Source: a virus (lineage: Duplodnaviria; Heunggongvirae; Uroviricota; Caudoviricetes). From it: a stretch of DNA of 64,000 bases. The translations under genes were made by a program, and so were the position numbers. A model generated the notes under the pieces. That model saw only the letters and a program-made list of their open reading frames with translations, was not told the origin of the DNA and searched no databases. How positions within the stretch are numbered: the first letter of the stretch is position 1; every line of letters starts with the position of its first letter. Location of the stretch: IMG/VR virus record IMGVR_UViG_2648501839_000008; one strand, 5' to 3'. Shown in pieces: positions 23,166 to 32,130 of this stretch.

Positions 23166-24788
23166 TTATTCTTTAGGTGAATTTAACTTCGTTTCAAGCT
23201 CCTCAACCCTTTTGGTCAATTGCTGAATATGATGAATGAGTGGTACAACCAAACGCTCATACATCACTCCTTCAGCGACCATACCATTTGAGGAAATATC
23301 TTCTGGAGAATCATTATTTGTTGGTTCACGCCAATGGACATATTGCGGGGCAATCTCACCAACCTCTTCAGCAATAAGGCCGTAATACCCCCAATCCTTT
23401 CGGTCACCTCGACAAATTGAACGATACCAAACAGGTCTTAATGACAAAAGTTCATCAGCATATCGATCTTGTAATGTTTCAATATCCTTTTTATAGCGCC
23501 TTGAAGATGTTGAACGCCAAACTGTATTGATACCTGGGTTTGGATCAATGTACATATTGGCACCGCTAGTAGTTGTGCCAATATCCCATATAGCAAACCC
23601 TCCACTACCGCCTGATTTGACAACCAGTGTTTCAGCAATAATATCCAGGTTGCCACTATAGCCTGTCAGTGATGATCTGCTTGCATAGGAACTTAGAAGG
23701 TTTGTTACCTCTGTTTTCGTATAAGCATTAAGGTTAGCCGCAGTCAAAGTAATATCGGCAGAGCCATCAAACGCCACACCAGCAATTTTCCTTGCTGTCT
23801 GCAATTTTGTGGCTGTTGCGGCATTACCAGTAGTATTCTGATTACCGGTTGTATTCACACCAGGGATTGAATCCTTAGCAGTATATACCTGCGCCCACGC
23901 TGACCATGCCGCATCTGTGGTATCTCTTCGTGAGCGAATGAAAACTGGCGCATGTGCACCGCTCGTACCACTCCAGCCAATAAGCAACTCGCCCTCACCA
24001 GCAGCACTCGCACCTTTCATGTGCAATACGTTGCCATACGTGGTCGGGTAGCTATTGTTGTACGCCTCGTACATTTGAATGCCAGCAGTGCCTTGAGTAG
24101 AGCCGCTTAATGCCGTAACTCGGCCACGAGATACCAGTGTATTAATGTTGATATCGCCTGAGCCATCAAACTTAACACCATTGATGTTTCTCGCTGTTTG
24201 CAACTTCGTAGCTGTTGAAGCATTACCGTTCAAACTACCATTTACGCCACCAGTCACATTTAGTCCATTACCAATTGATACCGCACCGCTGGTATTATTA
24301 ATTGTAATAGGTCGCAAACCGTTCCATGAACCTAATGTGTCTCCTGATGCTGTTAGCATGAAATATGTGTTCGATCCATCATTACGGATAAAGAACCCAA
24401 AGCTACCGTAAGCAATGCGGAAACCATTTGCATATTTTGAAATGATCTCGCCAGAAGATGTCAAACCTCCAGATAATGTACCACCGGTAAGAGGTAATGC
24501 ACCGACATCAGAGGCTGTTGGTTTGTTTTTCGTGTTATATACTCTTCGCCATCCCGGAGAATAATCTGTGCCATTAAATACATAGATAAACTCCGCATTA
24601 GTGAGAGCACCAGAGACACTCGTCGTTGTGGCCGTTGTTATACGGATCGTATAATTGTTTGAGCTACTACCGTTATTAAATACCTCTATAACAGCTCCTG
24701 CCAATGGAATAACGCCACAACCAGTTTCACTATTTGGTATGGTTGCACTATTGGCATAGGCCCACGCACTTTGTGTTAAATGCTCCAT
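23166..24788 (-). CDS. Tail fibre protein with C-terminal intramolecular chaperone (peptidase S74-like) domain
   Basis: C-terminal WRSTSSRRYKKDIE ... YGLIAEEV typical of auto-cleaving chaperone domains; shares GNAATATKLQTAR repeat modules with upstream fibre. Confidence 0.65.
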   Translation of the reverse strand: MEHLTQSAWAYANSATIPNSETGCGVIPLAGAVIEVFNNGSSSNNYTIRITTATTTSVSGALTNAEFIYVFNGTDYSPGWRRVYNTKNKPTASDVGALPLTGGTLSGGLTSSGEIISKYANGFRIAYGSFGFFIRNDGSNTYFMLTASGDTLGSWNGLRPITINNTSGAVSIGNGLNVTGGVNGSLNGNASTATKLQTARNINGVKFDGSGDININTLVSRGRVTALSGSTQGTAGIQMYEAYNNSYPTTYGNVLHMKGASAAGEGELLIGWSGTSGAHAPVFIRSRRDTTDAAWSAWAQVYTAKDSIPGVNTTGNQNTTGNAATATKLQTARKIAGVAFDGSADITLTAANLNAYTKTEVTNLLSSYASRSSLTGYSGNLDIIAETLVVKSGGSGGFAIWDIGTTTSGANMYIDPNPGINTVWRSTSSRRYKKDIETLQDRYADELLSLRPVWYRSICRGDRKDWGYYGLIAEEVGEIAPQYVHWREPTNNDSPEDISSNGMVAEGVMYERLVVPLIHHIQQLTKRVEELETKLNSPKE

Positions 24789-27306
24789 TATTTTGCAATA
24801 ACGTCACTAACTGTGCTGTTGTTATTGCTCCGCCATTACTTCCTGTAGTTAACCAACCAGTAGGAGATGCCGGGCAACCTATATTTGCTGGCGACAAGGA
24901 AATATTTGCCGAGCCGTCAAACGACACCCCATTGATAGTACGCGCAGTCTGCAACTTCGTTGCAGTAGCCGCGTTGCCCGTTGTATTCTGATTACCAGTC
25001 GTATTAACACCTGGCAAATTAATATTCGCAGTACCATCAAAGCTCACGCCGCCGATAGTTCTTGCCGTCTGAAGTTTTGTAGCAGTTGCAGCATTACCAG
25101 TGGTGTTCTGATTACCCGTAGTATTTACACCTGGAAGGTTGATATTTGCAGAACCGTCGAAACCAACTCCACCGATAGATCTTGCCGTCTGCAATTTCGT
25201 TGCTGTACTTGCATTACCATTTAATGTTCCGGTGATCCCACCAGTAACAGACAACGGACCTGAAACTGTTCCTCCGGTTGTTGGCAGTGCTCCAATATCT
25301 AACGGCGTCGGTTTCTGATGTGTGCTATACATCGTATAAACAACACCATCGGTAACGCTGGAAGGCTTACTCGCTGAATATGTTGGCGATGTATAAATAG
25401 AAACTGTCGCATTTGCAGTACAATCCCAATGGATATTTACACTAGTCGCATAATTGCCAATCTCAACGTAAATATCATATGTATCGCCGGATGTGTTGAT
25501 CCAGGCGAAATTCGTTAATCCGACGGCTGTACGCTTCCACAAAGCACCGGTAATCCCTTTGGGGTTTCCATTGCCTGCTCGTAGAACCAGTTCTGAAATG
25601 CCTGCCTGATGTGGGGAGCCGACGTTGTAACCAGCGCCACCAATCAATGCGATGTAAACGATGGAACTCGCTTGTGGCATGGTAACCGTAGCCAGTTTGA
25701 ACCACCCAGCCCCGCCAGAGAAAGACATCGTTACTGAATTTAAAGTACCAATATCTTTCGGCGTTAATGTGATATCCGCAGTCAGTGCTTTACCGTTAAC
25801 TTTTCGGTTAGATGGCACCCTGCTATTCGCATTGTCATTGGCTGCTTTAACTGCTTTTGGCGTTGCGGCCAGCGATTCACTGGTGCTGTCGACAGCACTG
25901 CTAAGTTTCACAACACCTTTGGTGGTAAGGCTTGCGTCTTCCATCGCAACGGCACCGGCAATCTCTTCAGCACGATCAGCGGCAGCTTCTGCACGGGTCG
26001 CAGCGGATTCAGCAGCAGCTTTGCTCTGAGATGCAGCCGTCGCACTGCCTGCCGCCTCTGTTGCTTTCGTGGATGCCGTTGAAGCACTCCCCTTCGCAGC
26101 TGATGCCTGCTTGGTCGCCTCATCTTTTGAAGCGGATGCCGAGGTGGCTGATGCAGACGCAGAACTTGCAGATTCAGCAGCTGCCTCTTTAGAGGAAGCG
26201 GCATTATCTTCAGAAGCCTTTGCATTTGTTTCAGAGGATTTTGCTGCCGATGCTGAATTTTTAGCGGCTGTAGCCTGATTCGTCGCCTCAGTCGCTTTTG
26301 CGGTAGCTGTTGTCGCTGACGACGACGCGCTTTCCGCAGATTTTCCTGCCGCAGTTGCACTTGATGAAGCACTATCCGCACTTGCTGAGGCTGCGCTTGC
26401 TGACGCTTCTGCCGCAGATTTCGAACTGTTTGCAGACGATGCACTCTGCCCGGCTGCCGTTTCAGATGCTTTTGCGTTTGTCTCTGACGCTTTTGCTGCC
26501 TTAGACGAATTTTCAGCTTCTGTTGCAAATGATGCAGCCGCGTTTGCACTCGATGAAGCGTTAGTCTCTGATGCTTTGGCTGCATCCTTAGATGCAGAGG
26601 CACTGGACGCAGATGTTGCTGCCTCCGATGCTTTGGTCGACGCTACAGACGCTGATTCTGCTGCCGCTAGATATGCTGATTCTGCGTTCGTTTCAGATTT
26701 TTTCGCAGCAGTTGCACTCGCACTTGCGGCACTTTGTGAGGATGCCGCAGCGGATGCACTTTGAGACGCTTGAGAGGCTTTTTCTCCAGCGGTATTGGCG
26801 CTTTCTGCTGCTGCGGCAGCACTGGCCGCCGCCTCACGAGCTTTGTCACCAGCGGCATCAATCGCGTCAGTGTTATTTTTATACCACTCAACGTTTTCGT
26901 TGTGCTCGTTGACGATCTGCATCAGCGGCTTAACGGTCACTTCTGTACCGTCTTCACGCTCGATTGTCACCTCATCCAGAGCAGTCAACCAACTACGCAT
27001 GGACTTGGAATCAGCCGACATACGCGACATTAGCGCGGTAAAGCGCGCGCTAAACTGTGTTAAGTCGCCTTCATAGGTAGTAATGATTCGGCACGGAACT
27101 TCAGACTGAGTTTCACCGGTATAAGGTTCTGAGAGAACAATGTTCGTATCGCTTGTTACGCGCTTGATCTCATACAGCTTATTGTCGGGGCCAATGACGA
27201 TCATCCCCGGCAACACACCATTAGCTGTTACGTTCCAGGCTGTCCCAACCCCAACCAGAGTATTACTACCCTGTGTAAATGTGATAGTACCTTCCCTGTA
27301 CCACAT
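24748..27306 (-). CDS. Side tail fibre protein, lambda Stf-like
   Basis: Ala/Ser-rich KASETNA repeats and segment AAGSATAASQSKAAAESAATRAEAAADRAEEIAGAVAMEDASLTTKGVVKLSSAVDSTSESLAATPKAVK closely resembling lambda Stf as recalled from memory. Confidence 0.8.
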   Translation of the reverse strand: MWYREGTITFTQGSNTLVGVGTAWNVTANGVLPGMIVIGPDNKLYEIKRVTSDTNIVLSEPYTGETQSEVPCRIITTYEGDLTQFSARFTALMSRMSADSKSMRSWLTALDEVTIEREDGTEVTVKPLMQIVNEHNENVEWYKNNTDAIDAAGDKAREAAASAAAAAESANTAGEKASQASQSASAAASSQSAASASATAAKKSETNAESAYLAAAESASVASTKASEAATSASSASASKDAAKASETNASSSANAAASFATEAENSSKAAKASETNAKASETAAGQSASSANSSKSAAEASASAASASADSASSSATAAGKSAESASSSATTATAKATEATNQATAAKNSASAAKSSETNAKASEDNAASSKEAAAESASSASASATSASASKDEATKQASAAKGSASTASTKATEAAGSATAASQSKAAAESAATRAEAAADRAEEIAGAVAMEDASLTTKGVVKLSSAVDSTSESLAATPKAVKAANDNANSRVPSNRKVNGKALTADITLTPKDIGTLNSVTMSFSGGAGWFKLATVTMPQASSIVYIALIGGAGYNVGSPHQAGISELVLRAGNGNPKGITGALWKRTAVGLTNFAWINTSGDTYDIYVEIGNYATSVNIHWDCTANATVSIYTSPTYSASKPSSVTDGVVYTMYSTHQKPTPLDIGALPTTGGTVSGPLSVTGGITGTLNGNASTATKLQTARSIGGVGFDGSANINLPGVNTTGNQNTTGNAATATKLQTARTIGGVSFDGTANINLPGVNTTGNQNTTGNAATATKLQTARTINGVSFDGSANISLSPANIGCPASPTGWLTTGSNGGAITTAQLVTLLQNNGAFNTKCVGLCQ

Positions 27307-27399: not shown

Positions 27400-30300
27400 T
27401 CACAGAAGGCCAATTCTTACTCGTAAGACGTTGTTATCGTCATAAACGTCAATCCGCTGACCATTTATAACCAATCGCCCATTGCCGCCGCTATTACCGT
27501 TGATCTCAAGCGTTCCATTTTTGCCGAACCGCCATCCAGATCTACCGCTAACAAAATTGGTAGATTGCAGATCGCCTACTTTTGCATTGGTGATTGTGCC
27601 ATCCTTGATATACGCACCATTCATATAGGCGATACTGTTTTCGATAACAAATGGCGTGGTGATCTTCCCGTTAACAGAGTTGACCAAACCAAATCTGTCC
27701 GCCTGCACCAAAAACTGAGAAAGACCGGTGGTGTCGATACCAAGCGCAATACCGGCAACATACTTCTGCCCTCCGCTCGTTGAAGTCTCCATTTTCAACG
27801 TCCACGCGGTTGAGACTTTTTTGTTGGTATCAGCAATGGCTGTTGCCTGCTGTTGAATTGTCGCGGTATTTCCATCCACCTCTGCTTTCAGAGTATCGAT
27901 TCGCCCACTTAGAGCATTATCTGCCTGCGTTCTCGCTGTCGTTTCAGTTGTGACCGCCGCAGAAATGTTGGCTGCTGTTTGAGACTCTAAGTTTGTGATT
28001 TGAGTCGCCAATGCCGCATCTTGCTCTGTACGCGTTTTCGTTTCGGTTGCTACAGCCGCTTTAATATCCTCTTTGTATTGAGAGGTCAGCTTGGTGATCT
28101 GAGATGACAACGCCGAGTCAGCATCAGTTCGAGCCTGCGTTTCCACTGCAACGGCCGCACTAATATCTTTCGCAGTCTGTGCTTTTAAACTTGAAACCTC
28201 TTTTGTTAAAGCGGTATCGCCATCTGCACGAGCCGTTGTTTCTTTGGCAAGAGACGCCTCGAGATCATTAGCTTTTGCTGTAAGAGATGTAATCTGGCTG
28301 GACAATGCACTATCGGCGTCAGTCCTTGCCTTTGTCTCTACAGCAACGGCTGCGACAATGTCAGTTCCGGTCTGCGCCCGCAGGCTGTTAATTTCTCGTG
28401 AGAGCGCCTCGTCAGCACTTGCTCTAGCCTCCTGCTCCTGAGTGATGGCGGCGGATATATCACCGTCAACCTTTGCTTGAAGCTGGTTTATTTGTTTAGC
28501 TAACGCAGAGTCTCCGCTCGCACGCGCCTCCTGCTCACTGCGTATTGCAGCAGAAATATCATCATCAACTTTTGCCTGAAGTTGGGTGATCTGGCTTGCC
28601 AGAGCCGAATCTTCCGTTGCTCGGGCTTCTTGCTCTTCCTTAATGGCTGCGACAATATCGTTGCTTACTTTCGACTCAAGCTGAGTTATTTGTTTCGTCA
28701 AAGCTTCATCGGCAGATGTACGAGCCTCCTGTTCTGTACTAATCGCCGCGCTGATATCTCCTTCAAACTTAGATTGCAGCTGAGTGACACGCTTTGCCAA
28801 CGCTTCATCGCCATCGGCACGAGCGGTGGACTCTTCCAGAATACTGGCCTTAATGTCTTCGCCAATTTCTACGCGAATTTCCTCAACCTTCGTGGCCATT
28901 GCAGACATATCATCAGCAAAGGTTTTCTGTGTTGTTGCGATCTTCGCGTTATTGACCATCTGCTTGTGCTGGTCTTCATCTTGACGAAGAGCCAGGTCAA
29001 TATTTGTTTTAGCTAACGCCTCAATGTTCGTAGTCAGTTCTGCACTGGCACGATCGACCTCTGCAACCGTCTTTTTCATTTCTTCAACGGCTGCGGAACT
29101 TTCCTCTACCGTCGACTGCAACACTTCCAGTTGTTTAGCGTTTGCGGCATCACCTTCAACACGAGCCTCGCTTTCCTTAGCAATAAGAGCCGCCGCTTCG
29201 TCTCTTGCAGCCTTTATTGCCTCGACTGTATTAGCGAGAGCTTTATCGTGTTCAGATACGGTGTTTTCGATTTCAACAATTGCAGCATCAGTAGCATCAA
29301 TTTTTTCAAACGCTTCATTGACCTTGTCGATCGTTGCCGAAACCTCACCTTTAAGCTCGGTTTGTGCGTTCTCCAAAGCATCGCTACGCTCGTTGAATTT
29401 TATTTCAAAACCCGCGAGGTTATCGCTGAACTGCTTATCTAATTCAGCTATATCTTCCTTAACGTCGTTTACCGCCCCCTCCAAAGATTCGACGCTCTGG
29501 TTGATATGCTCATTTAACTCGTCAACTGCTTCTTGAGAGGCTTTGCTGTTGATGTCCTCAAGCAGAGCCTGACCAAGCTCGGAAGATGTAATTTTGCCAG
29601 CCAGGAACGACAGTACATCGCGAGTTGTCGCCTCTGTACCCAAGTTTGAGTTCGGAGGGCTTAACATACCTCGCTTGTTCGATGCTCGAACCCAGTAATA
29701 CCACGTTTCGCTATCCCCAAGACCAGCATGTGTAAAGGTGGTGCTTGCAGACTCTGCGATCAGTTTCGCCGTATCCAGATTGTTGGTCTGGGATGCGTAA
29801 ACATTAATGTGATCAAGGTCTACCGAATCTGGATTAACCCAATTCAGTATCACATTACGATAGTCTCCAACGGCCGTTAATGACGTTGGTGCATCCGGCG
29901 GTGTCATTGTGCCCAGCACCTGATAAACGGTACTGATAATTTCTGTTTTTTTACCGTTGAATGAAACCGCATACAGTTGGAAGTCGTAGCGTCCATTCTC
30001 CGCGACATTAACGATTTCGTATTGCTCTTCGGTTACACGCGCCGATTGCCAGTTCGATACATTGTTTTCATCAGAACGTCGCCAACTGATCCAATACTCT
30101 GGAGATTTCCCTTCCCATGTTGCAGTCAGTTTTACTGACAGGTTGCCCGGGCTTGAGAGGTAAGTCCCTTCAGTGATTTGCAAATTAGACGGCTTGGAGT
30201 AAGTCGGGTCCAATACCGTCGTATTCTGCGGGATAAGCGTTGCACCATTGTCGATCGCCTCATATTTAGACGGATTGTTTTCAACAGCGGTGATGTCAAA

Positions 30301-32130
30301 GCTACCCGACGTTTCCCCCTGAGCGATGTTAACGATGCGAACGCGCATAGGTTCGAGATCTGGTTCTGTAATTGTCCAGACACCGTTCAAAACAGGCGTT
30401 TCCGCTGACGACAGAGCTTTTGAAAACGTAACCTTTGTTATGTTTTCGCCAGTTTCAAGAACATCGCGCTCAACGATTTTGCCTTCCTGATTCAATATCC
30501 GAATAAAGCTGCCGCTTTTAGCTAACGACACAGGCGCATCGAGAGTGATGCTGTTTTTGGTAAACTCCACAATTCGACCGGAGTTACGTTTACCTGCACG
30601 ATATTTGTTCTGAATCAGAACGGTTTCACCGGGCATCAGAAATGAGGCGTCTAAGCCGGCAGTAAATGTAATTACATCCGACTCCATTCTGGCGGTATAC
30701 AAAAGCCACAAACCAACTCGGTGAGCCTGGCCTCGGCTTGTACATCCAAATGCTACGACTTCTGTTTTACGCTCACCATAACGGCGCATTGCGTCCTGAT
30801 CTTCAACGTACTCGATGTTTTGCTTATAACCGTCCTCCTTGTTGTTGTAGGTTACGAGCGCAACGGATGGGCGATCTTTACGCGCAGAACCTTTATAGGT
30901 AAACAGTCCATCTTTGACGTTGGAGTTGGTAAACATCATTACTGGATCTGATGGGCTATCCTGCATGATGTTAACCATGCCACCAGCCCAAAACACCATG
31001 CCGCGGAATGCACCGGCAATATCCTGAATTAATCGGTATGCGTCTTGTCGACTGGTGATCTGCGTATTGATTGCAAAGCGTTTCTCTTTACCCCCAAAGC
31101 CATCATCGACCTCTTCGTCACAATATCGACCAATCTGGTAGAGCTGGCCGAGGTCAATCATGGATTCCGACACAAATTGCCCAAGACCATACCGAGTATT
31201 GGTAAGCAAATCGTAGAGAATCCACGCAGGGTTTGAAGAAGACAACAGCTTAAAAGTACCGTCCCATACGCCGACATAAGTATTGGTGTATTCGTTGTAG
31301 TTTGACGGCACTCGAATTTTGATACCGCGCACCAAATACGAACGGGAAGGCATTGTGCTACCAAACTGCTCTGAATTGACCTTTAAGCCAACAAGTGCAG
31401 AGTTAGGGTAGTTCATGGGGGTATCTACAATCTCACCGATGGAATCAACCCAAGTATCGTTGTAGAGGTACTGGCTACTGTTATCATCCGTAAGACGAAT
31501 CACCCGAACCTTGTATGCACGGCCAGGTTTAGGCAGTTTCAGCTCATAGCTACGGTAATACACGCCGGTTTTCTTTGCCGTTAGCGTGATATCAACGCTT
31601 TTCTCACCTTCTGCCACTACATCAGAAAATGTTGCGTCTCCGTTGGCGATCTGGAATTTGTACTTCACCGTAGTGCCATTTGTATCGCCAGAGCTTTTAT
31701 CAACGCTACGTAAAGAGGGGAATTTCATGATGACACGAACGCGATCAGCTTCATCGTTATCGATTGAAACCGTAACGTCGTGTGTTTTTTTAAGCTGAAT
31801 ATTTACGGACTTAGGCGTTTCGACAAAATCAAAACCAGCCATTGGCGTCTGGTCTTGTGAGCCGTCACGAAAATCCCATGTAATACCGCTGAAGTTGGAA
31901 GAGCCATCTTCATTCAAGATCGGTAAATCGTCGATGAAGATCGACTTTGCGCCATTTACCAGGCCACCGATAACCCCCTCGCCAAGAAGGTCGAGGATGG
32001 CTGCCATAGCACGAGAATTTACAGTATCATCAGCTTCAACCGGGGTACGGCTGGAGCTTTTACTTTTCTTGCCACCAGCACCGGCAATAAGAAGCGGTAA
32101 TTTTTTCTTCTTGAACTGTTCCATGTCCAA
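27400..32130 (-). CDS. Tail tip / host specificity protein (lambda gpJ-like) with long coiled-coil repeat region
   Basis: N-terminal region with NPAWILYDLLTNTRYGLG characteristic of gpJ family; about 450 aa of periodic DISAAI...EQEARASADEAL repeats; 1576 aa. Confidence 0.85.
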   Translation of the reverse strand: MDMEQFKKKKLPLLIAGAGGKKSKSSSRTPVEADDTVNSRAMAAILDLLGEGVIGGLVNGAKSIFIDDLPILNEDGSSNFSGITWDFRDGSQDQTPMAGFDFVETPKSVNIQLKKTHDVTVSIDNDEADRVRVIMKFPSLRSVDKSSGDTNGTTVKYKFQIANGDATFSDVVAEGEKSVDITLTAKKTGVYYRSYELKLPKPGRAYKVRVIRLTDDNSSQYLYNDTWVDSIGEIVDTPMNYPNSALVGLKVNSEQFGSTMPSRSYLVRGIKIRVPSNYNEYTNTYVGVWDGTFKLLSSSNPAWILYDLLTNTRYGLGQFVSESMIDLGQLYQIGRYCDEEVDDGFGGKEKRFAINTQITSRQDAYRLIQDIAGAFRGMVFWAGGMVNIMQDSPSDPVMMFTNSNVKDGLFTYKGSARKDRPSVALVTYNNKEDGYKQNIEYVEDQDAMRRYGERKTEVVAFGCTSRGQAHRVGLWLLYTARMESDVITFTAGLDASFLMPGETVLIQNKYRAGKRNSGRIVEFTKNSITLDAPVSLAKSGSFIRILNQEGKIVERDVLETGENITKVTFSKALSSAETPVLNGVWTITEPDLEPMRVRIVNIAQGETSGSFDITAVENNPSKYEAIDNGATLIPQNTTVLDPTYSKPSNLQITEGTYLSSPGNLSVKLTATWEGKSPEYWISWRRSDENNVSNWQSARVTEEQYEIVNVAENGRYDFQLYAVSFNGKKTEIISTVYQVLGTMTPPDAPTSLTAVGDYRNVILNWVNPDSVDLDHINVYASQTNNLDTAKLIAESASTTFTHAGLGDSETWYYWVRASNKRGMLSPPNSNLGTEATTRDVLSFLAGKITSSELGQALLEDINSKASQEAVDELNEHINQSVESLEGAVNDVKEDIAELDKQFSDNLAGFEIKFNERSDALENAQTELKGEVSATIDKVNEAFEKIDATDAAIVEIENTVSEHDKALANTVEAIKAARDEAAALIAKESEARVEGDAANAKQLEVLQSTVEESSAAVEEMKKTVAEVDRASAELTTNIEALAKTNIDLALRQDEDQHKQMVNNAKIATTQKTFADDMSAMATKVEEIRVEIGEDIKASILEESTARADGDEALAKRVTQLQSKFEGDISAAISTEQEARTSADEALTKQITQLESKVSNDIVAAIKEEQEARATEDSALASQITQLQAKVDDDISAAIRSEQEARASGDSALAKQINQLQAKVDGDISAAITQEQEARASADEALSREINSLRAQTGTDIVAAVAVETKARTDADSALSSQITSLTAKANDLEASLAKETTARADGDTALTKEVSSLKAQTAKDISAAVAVETQARTDADSALSSQITKLTSQYKEDIKAAVATETKTRTEQDAALATQITNLESQTAANISAAVTTETTARTQADNALSGRIDTLKAEVDGNTATIQQQATAIADTNKKVSTAWTLKMETSTSGGQKYVAGIALGIDTTGLSQFLVQADRFGLVNSVNGKITTPFVIENSIAYMNGAYIKDGTITNAKVGDLQSTNFVSGRSGWRFGKNGTLEINGNSGGNGRLVINGQRIDVYDDNNVLRVRIGLL

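Follow-up and report, generated by a model that had tools for sequence, protein, structure and literature searches.

The sequence described here lies in a 64,000-nucleotide stretch of viral DNA (Caudoviricetes; IMG/VR virus record IMGVR_UViG_2648501839_000008), referred to below as the window. It encodes a protein resembling the tail-tip protein J of phage lambda. A first-pass annotation had flagged positions 27900-29500 as a coiled-coil insert of about 450 near-regularly repeating residues in a gpJ-like protein. This range corresponds to residues 877-1411 of a 1576-residue open reading frame (ORF) on the minus strand, in which the strings quoted for the repeat (DISAAI, EQEARASADEAL and QITQLQAKV) are all found. 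The gpJ-like identity is borne out by the domains of the protein and by its gene neighborhood. Pfam recognizes FNIII-A_GpJ (residues 103-237, E=1e-29), Phage-tail_3 (359-522, E=7.5e-34), fn3 (746-825, E=2e-5), and Phage_Tail_Tip/DUF1983 (1424-1558, E=1.2e-41), and finds no domain in residues 850-1420. The upstream genes are L-, K-, and I-like, with Pfam matches to Phage_tail_L and, in the K-like gene, to Prok-JAB and NlpC/P60. The 1576-residue protein is assigned by PHROG to ‘central tail fiber J’. At the nucleotide level, the whole gene is 94% identical to those of the Escherichia phages Cyrano (pLF82) and CMS-2020a, both SSU5-like phage-plasmids. The Cyrano counterpart, CYRAN_20, is annotated as ‘tail host specificity protein J’ and stands in an annotated M-L-K-I-J gene order. 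The ORF product is the gpJ-like tail-tip protein of an SSU5-like siphovirus phage-plasmid of E. coli; its gene is already annotated and widespread, and the element is not of a new kind. Two antisense ORFs on the plus strand (28582..29016 and 29024..29536) were put down to a stop-poor coding strand. The layout of the gene is summarized in Table 1.

Table 1. Layout of the J-like gene. Positions are those of the window; aa, amino acid residues of the encoded protein.
Feature	Position	Strand	Details and basis
J-like central tail fibre / tail-tip gene	27400..32130	minus	1576 aa; stop codon 27400-27402
Conserved hub and fibronectin part, aa 1-848	29587..32130	minus	Pfam domains; alignment to lambda J, T1 gp33, F2 pyocin fibre
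Non-periodic helical shaft segment, aa 849-1091	28858..29586	minus	AlphaFold2 helix; no 33-aa period; no proline
Isolated degenerate copy of the 33-aa unit, aa 982-1009	29104..29187	minus	Unit profile, 14.7 bits
Most conserved block of the non-periodic shaft, aa 1040-1083, TNIDLALRQDEDQHKQMVNNAKIATTQK...	28882..29013	minus	Conservation profile
Array of ten tandem 33-aa units (one of 32 aa), aa 1092-1420	27871..28857	minus	Unit profile
Units 3-5, the most similar neighbours	28363..28659	minus	Identity matrices; map of unit gains and losses
Distal beta-rich tip domain, aa 1421-1576 (Phage_Tail_Tip / DUF1983)	27403..27870	minus	Pfam, AlphaFold2, Foldseek

The distal half of the protein contains a highly regular 33-residue repeat. 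The BLOSUM62 autocorrelation at a lag of 33 residues exceeds that of shuffled sequences by z=23 for residues 1092-1421 and by z=17 for the flagged range as a whole, and the period is missing from residues 850-1091 (z=0.2). A profile built from the unit finds exactly ten tandem copies, each scoring 46-60 bits. The periodicity is therefore real, but the regular array comprises only 329 of the roughly 450 residues first proposed; the leading ~215 residues of the flagged range are helical-looking and without repeat, and ~243 residues of helix-predicted, non-periodic sequence precede the array. The unit consensus is DIsAAIxxExxARxxxDxALxxQIxxLxAkv, in which columns A4, E9, R13, D17, A19, L20, and L27 are invariant and D1, I2, and A12 almost so. 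Mean identity between units is 49% for amino acids and 52% for nucleotides, rising to as much as 76% and 64% among units 3-5. The isolated degenerate unit upstream of the array is also kept in Cyrano, PhiR41_1, and SSU5.

The unit belongs to a large family. A search of 1.84 billion representative proteins with the unit profile returned 2066 matches at E<=1e-3, of which 986 also pass E<=1e-10; the best matches show 20-31 matched stretches per protein. A J-like N-terminus is present in 29 of the top 150 matches, and many of the others are without a J hub; the more than 2000 protein clusters spanned by the family also include the LptD-binding protein gp56 of phage DEV. One J-like protein of 2138 residues (P0121) has 22 units spaced 33 residues apart. 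The shaft had been called unusually long, which is true relative to the studied examples (no units in lambda, ~3-4 in T1, ~5 in F-pyocins), but ten units is mid-range in the wider family. In a Pfam scan of the array and upstream helix (E<=10), no family covered the 33-residue unit, and sub-threshold matches to Mitofilin, apolipoproteins, and filament proteins were dismissed as compositional coiled-coil look-alikes.

Related alleles differ in the number of units. Of 5426 complete E. coli genomes, 176 (about 3%) carry the C-terminal half of the gene (27400-29600), always on plasmids (~76-200 kb, mostly ~105-120 kb), with 166 copies being 95-99% identical. Span lengths were compared in two sets of these plasmid copies, the top 40 rows and a ranked 60-row sample. 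They equal that of the query in all compared records except four: CUPF06 is 99 nucleotides (nt) longer, CT01 and 2013C-4991 are 99 nt shorter, and one record carries an insertion of the insertion sequence (IS) IS1203. When translated, the CUPF06 allele has 11 units, one being exactly duplicated, and the CT01 and 2013C-4991 alleles have nine; a draft-genome allele (P0006) also has nine, through a deletion of the same type. Every one-unit gain or loss seen falls in units 3-5. A changed unit number was found in only 3 of the 56 sampled full-length plasmid copies, by one unit each, and ten units is a near-constant count among ~165 E. coli plasmids. More distant alleles have nine units (PhiR41_1, P0028), six (proteins of Salmonella, Cronobacter, and Yersinia pestis), five (SSU5 and several E. 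coli proteins), or one (E. coli proteins of 1228-1229 residues). The one-unit alleles are complete and derive from ~110-kb contigs. Nearly identical tip domains are thus found on 1, 5, 6, 9, 10, or 11 units. Copy number shifts by whole units across the group, yet is stable within the common allele; the length polymorphism anticipated among related genomes is accordingly clear across the group and rare within that allele. An IS3-family (IS1203-like) insertion was also observed inside the J gene of NZ_CP085184.1, NZ_CP028433.1, and NZ_CP151018.1, and these phage-plasmids may be defective as phages.

The array region probably forms part of a coiled-coil shaft. An AlphaFold2 monomer model of residues 844-1576 (33 sequences; mean predicted local distance difference test score, pLDDT, 66) places helix at residues 849-1056 and 1061-1408. 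A model of residues 1257-1576 (58 sequences, mean pLDDT 85) yields the same helix, with pLDDT 87-93 over the last five units. In both models, three long strands (residues 1411-1418, 1421-1433, and 1439-1450; pLDDT ~80-88) are followed by the beta-rich tip domain, and the predicted helix-to-strand boundary falls inside unit 10. Residues 850-1420 (~570 residues) contain no proline. The strongest hydrophobicity harmonics of the array are at 3.65 residues (33/9, hendecad-like) and 2.06 residues (33/16, a strand-like alternation), and the upstream shaft peaks at 3.55 residues. Judging from the sequence, the unit may consist of three hendecads; at 11/3 residues per turn, I2/R13/I24, I6/D17/L27, and E9/L20/V31 would share one face, and a polar E9-R13-D17 ladder would sit in the middle hendecad. 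Foldseek searches with the 733-residue model were uninformative because the long helix dominated; the shorter model matched through the tip domain only, to the lambda central fibre (8xcj, 8xci) and the SU10 tip fibre (7z4b).

The coiled-coil assignment of the first-pass annotation is supported both by this almost unbroken predicted helix and by homology. Residues 927-1193 of the F2 pyocin fibre align with residues 1276-1548 of the J-like protein (phmmer, E=1.1e-25), and residues 907-1084 of the same fibre have been resolved as a trimeric coiled coil to which the side fibres attach (preprint 10.64898/2026.02.24.707460). The single predicted helix break, at residues 1057-1060, has low pLDDT and lies inside the conserved block of residues 1040-1083. 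As the F2 pyocin shaft has a kinked docking region (preprint 10.64898/2026.02.24.707460), this block is a candidate hinge or side-fibre docking site.

A homologous coiled coil has been reported to change its fold. In the central fibre of the F7 pyocin, a 163-residue coiled coil converts on cell contact into a triangular beta-prism, thereby opening the tip, and each face of the prism is a sheet formed from a single chain (PMC12874032, a 2026 preprint). The conversion is associated with a motif, SxSxxMxxLxS, that flips direction strand by strand. In this motif, S denotes small residues buried at the prism corners, L denotes hydrophobic residues buried in both states, and M denotes residues buried in the coil only, which are often acidic and paired with an arginine four residues off. 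Glutamine substitutions at the small positions of F7 abolish killing and leave assembly unaffected (PMC12874032). The C-terminal homology of the J-like protein to F7 was judged via F2.

Both orientations of this motif occur in the array. The reverse form (SxLxxMxxSxS) lies at unit positions 4-14 and the forward form (SxSxxMxxLxS) at 19-29, with 20 of 20 in register over the ten units. In total, 27 motif matches are found in the array versus 5.8 +/- 2.4 expected (2000 shuffles, maximum 18), and the upstream helix shows no enrichment (6 matches versus 3.0 +/- 1.7 in shuffles). The isolated degenerate unit nevertheless has the pair, with the reverse motif at residue 981 and the forward motif at residue 996. 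The acidic M position corresponds to E9, and R13 follows four residues on in every unit. Similar spacings are seen in relatives: the reverse-to-forward distance in the F2 pyocin segment is 15 residues, as here, with a period of 32 residues, and the forward motif of T1 recurs every 33 residues. The 163 residues of the F7 switching segment amount to about five 33-residue units, though the F7 preprint does not use the word ‘repeat’ (PMC12874032). In addition, the tip domain here opens with three strands, as in the proposed ‘seed’. Because the motif pairs sit in register in each unit and are similarly spaced in the F2 pyocin segment, one unit may correspond to one beta-hairpin.

We lean towards the view that the array forms the distal part of a trimeric coiled-coil shaft that is probably metastable, as homology and the motif suggest, and that would refold by one beta-hairpin per unit. 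The likeliest role of the shaft is to position the tip domain and the side fibres. According to this model, the N-terminal 850 residues of three J-like chains would build the tail-tip cone. From there, the chains would go on as a parallel trimeric alpha-helical coiled coil of ~560 residues, ~80 nm long if fully extended, with the small beta-rich tip domain at its far end. Contact with the cell surface would turn each unit into one beta-hairpin, so that every chain would contribute 20 strands. Starting at the strands already formed in the tip domain, the three chains would close up into a short triangular beta-prism. In the process, the array would contract from ~49 nm (329 residues x 0.148 nm) to ~10 nm (two strands per unit, 0.48 nm each), pulling the tail tip to the outer membrane and opening it. 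Unit number would set both the reach and the stroke of the fibre and would be altered only by whole units.

Several observations weigh against this model. The residue classes that define the motif are broad, and Ala, Ser, and Thr are abundant in the array. In addition, the ten units are mutual copies, so the 20 in-register matches are not independent. Complete one-unit alleles carry nearly the same tip domain, so a functional J does not need a long switching array, and such alleles suit a tunable spacer no less well than a power stroke. As for the fold switch, it is known from one 2026 pyocin preprint, whose authors describe the evidence for lambda/T1-type fibres as predictive only (PMC12874032), and the authors of the F2 pyocin study assign a heptad register with a local stutter rather than hendecads (preprint 10.64898/2026.02.24.707460). 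Finally, both AlphaFold2 monomer runs produced helix only and no beta-prism. As the published fold-switch test used trimers and prism geometry is not judgeable from a monomer, this result was not counted against a trimeric beta-prism.

The foremost alternative is a shaft that never refolds. Here the trimeric coil would set the distance from cone to tip and dock the downstream side fibres, and unit number would tune reach through O-antigen or capsule. Such a static shaft agrees with helix being the only structure that AlphaFold2 confidently predicts for the shaft and with the use of the F2 pyocin shaft as a binding platform for side fibres. It also suits the conserved block with its helix break, and the occurrence of nearly identical tip domains on alleles of 1 to 11 units, which suggests a freely tunable length. 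It would leave unexplained, however, the six invariant small-residue positions per unit, the in-register match of all ten units to both forms of the motif, and the strand-like 2.06-residue harmonic. Moreover, the homologous F-pyocin segment loses killing but not assembly when its small positions are changed to glutamine. We regard a purely static shaft as credible but somewhat improbable.

A quite different explanation would place the function of the repeat in its DNA. The first-pass annotation had described the shaft as being encoded by tandem DNA repeats prone to length variation; as a contingency-type repeat, near-identical 99-nt units would undergo slippage or unequal recombination and so change fibre length rapidly and reversibly. 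Exact 99-nt gains and losses do separate near-identical alleles (11 units in CUPF06; nine in CT01, 2013C-4991, and P0006), all of them in the most similar units, 3-5, and distant alleles have 1 to 9 units. There is also a 99-nt period in the DNA (identity of 51% at lag 99 versus 29 +/- 2.6% at other multiples of 3). The units are far from near-identical, however: their nucleotide identity is ~52% and the longest exact word that they have in common is 12 nt. Tandem Repeats Finder reported no 99-nt array even at score 30, and a DNA repeat search gave short families only (19-43 nt, 60-89% identity). Formal repeat detection thus succeeds on the protein, by autocorrelation and unit profile, and fails on the DNA with Tandem Repeats Finder. 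Identical residues of different units are encoded by the same codon in only 34.5% of cases. Given such nucleotide divergence and randomised synonymous codons, the array is an old protein repeat kept by selection on the protein, not a slippage-prone DNA repeat; its stable copy number within the common allele, with the same length in ~95% of the sampled full-length E. coli plasmid copies, is likewise unlike that of a slippage-prone repeat. The contingency reading is largely refuted by these DNA and length data, and we consider it very improbable.

The two halves of the J gene appear to have separate histories, with a junction near the start of the helical region, because N- and C-terminal identities differ across the E. 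coli plasmids. The N-terminal half is present in 225 complete E. coli genomes with a bimodal identity (61 at >=95%, 141 at 90-95%). In plasmid NZ_CP103659.1, for example, the N-terminal half is 91.1% and the C-terminal half 98.4% identical, and many plasmids likewise combine an N-terminal half of only ~91% identity with a C-terminal half of 97-98%. By megablast, similarity to PhiR41_1 and several Klebsiella phages is limited to residues 1 to ~884, ending at the start of the helical region. The endpoint of this similarity and the contrast between 141 N-terminal halves at 90-95% and 166 C-terminal halves at 95-99% would fit a recombination linker, in which the helical region is a permissive junction for swapping distal modules between phage-plasmids and the repeat has no specific mechanical role, but this reading is the least probable of all, as the breakpoint lies upstream of the array rather than inside it and neither the seven invariant columns over ten units with saturated synonymous sites nor the presence of the unit in more than 2000 protein clusters would be explained. 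Separately, many of the draft-genome fragments that are 98-100% identical to the protein (P0079-P0118) are N-terminal and end between residues 950 and 1090. These ends lie within the non-periodic helix and not in the array, and short-read assemblies seem to break there often.

Beyond the metastable shaft, we tentatively propose a broader generalization, which is rather unlikely to hold. The 33-residue unit would be the ‘hairpin quantum’ of a fold-switching spring, with copy number setting its stroke and stored energy, for instance to suit O-antigen or capsule layers of a given thickness. The published motif would then represent the two halves of a widespread repeat family, with arrays of up to ~22 units in J-like proteins. 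If this is true, the SSU5-like phage-plasmids would form a natural series, with almost the same tip carried by 1, 5, 6, 9, 10, or 11 quanta. Non-contractile tails get past the outer membrane without any energy source, and the only mechanism so far proposed for coiled-coil central fibres comes from the 2026 pyocin preprint. The protein described here is a clean and highly regular instance of such a fibre in a genuine and very common temperate phage-plasmid. Natural alleles that differ only in unit number would serve as a test set to distinguish spring from spacer and to relate length to host range.

The side tail fibre next to the J-like gene differs from that of Cyrano. It is a single 1341-residue gene in Cyrano and is represented here by ORFs of 852 and 540 residues in different frames (23166-27306, minus strand); pairwise alignment places a 17-nt deletion relative to Cyrano at their junction (~24748-24788). 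This could reflect a frameshift in the fibre gene or truncation of the fibre, or else a fibre made in two pieces. Residues ~150-480 of the 852-residue protein (~25867-26859, minus strand) consist of quasi-repeats rich in Ala, Ser, Thr, Glu, and Asn (…ASETNAKASE…, …SASAAASS…), and the protein has no Pfam match. The 540-residue ORF (23166-24788, minus strand) encodes a T4 Gp34-type trimerisation domain and a C-terminal Peptidase_S74 intramolecular chaperone domain, which are typical of self-cleaving fibre tips. Virions attributed to Cyrano have tails of 259 +/- 12 nm, compared to ~230 nm expected from the tape measure protein, and fibres are not mentioned in the paper describing them (PMC9928086).

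Comparison with known fibres places the J-like protein in a known kind. When searched against PDB sequences with phmmer, its N-terminal ~850 residues align with the F2 pyocin fibre, T1 gp33, lambda J, and the J-like protein gp24, with E values of 1e-128 to 1e-156 for the hub part of lambda J, T1 gp33, and the F2 pyocin fibre. The helix and tip part aligns with T1 gp33, the F2 pyocin fibre, DEV gp56, and gp24 (23gd).

Lambda J (8iyk, 8xcj) is similar in its hub, FNIII, and Phage_Tail_Tip domains, all of which align, and in the M-L-K-I-J order of its genes. The phmmer match to 8iyk has E=1e-127. Lambda residues 3-837 correspond to residues 22-862 and lambda residues 839-971 to residues 1420-1548. 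The helical region is therefore an insert relative to lambda J, as had been recognized from the sequence, and comprises ~557 residues; no coiled coil separates residues 837 and 839 of lambda J. The C-terminal part had also been described as receptor-binding, which the comparison does not bear out: lambda J has an extra C-terminal LamB-binding domain, whereas the present protein ends after Phage_Tail_Tip. The NCBIfam lambda_TipJ model does not reach its cutoff (534 versus 1950 bits) and matches residues 22-903 only.

The J proteins of Cyrano and CMS-2020a have the same architecture with ten units. Salmonella phage SSU5 gp20 (1385 residues, 5 units) and the J protein of PhiR41_1 (1535 residues, 9 units) likewise represent the same protein and architecture. 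More remote is gp56 of Pseudomonas phage DEV (PDB 9ze4), which has weaker copies of the unit (8-14 bits) and a similar C-terminal end. This is a 429-residue fibre of an N4-like podovirus that has no J hub and binds LptD (PMC12892993).

T1 gp33 (PDB 9l9p) is a lambda-like tip protein in which a helical segment with a 33-residue repeat leads into a homologous tip domain. The units align to its residues 888-1167 (E=6.7e-30), and it has only ~3-4 units in a C-terminal part of 350 residues. This part is too flexible for cryo-electron microscopy, and an AlphaFold3 model represents it as a ~37 nm fibre (PMC11945409). T1 differs in being a lytic Drexlerviridae phage rather than a phage-plasmid.

The F-type pyocin fibre (F2 PA0641, PDB 25vf/25vj/26ci) combines a J-like hub, a coiled coil, and a beta-prism/tip domain, and aligns over its full length with phmmer E=7.7e-156. 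Its coil spans 163-178 residues, or about five units, compared to ten units and 243 further helical residues here, and its units are far more degenerate, only one exceeding 25 bits with the unit profile of the present protein. The pyocin lacks both capsid and genome. A homologue of its cap protein PA0642 was not noticed beside the J-like gene, where the next gene is a fibre. The array shaft is thus a further case of an architecture known from F-pyocins and T1, to which the present analysis makes a modest addition: the reading of one unit as one hairpin and a natural copy-number series.

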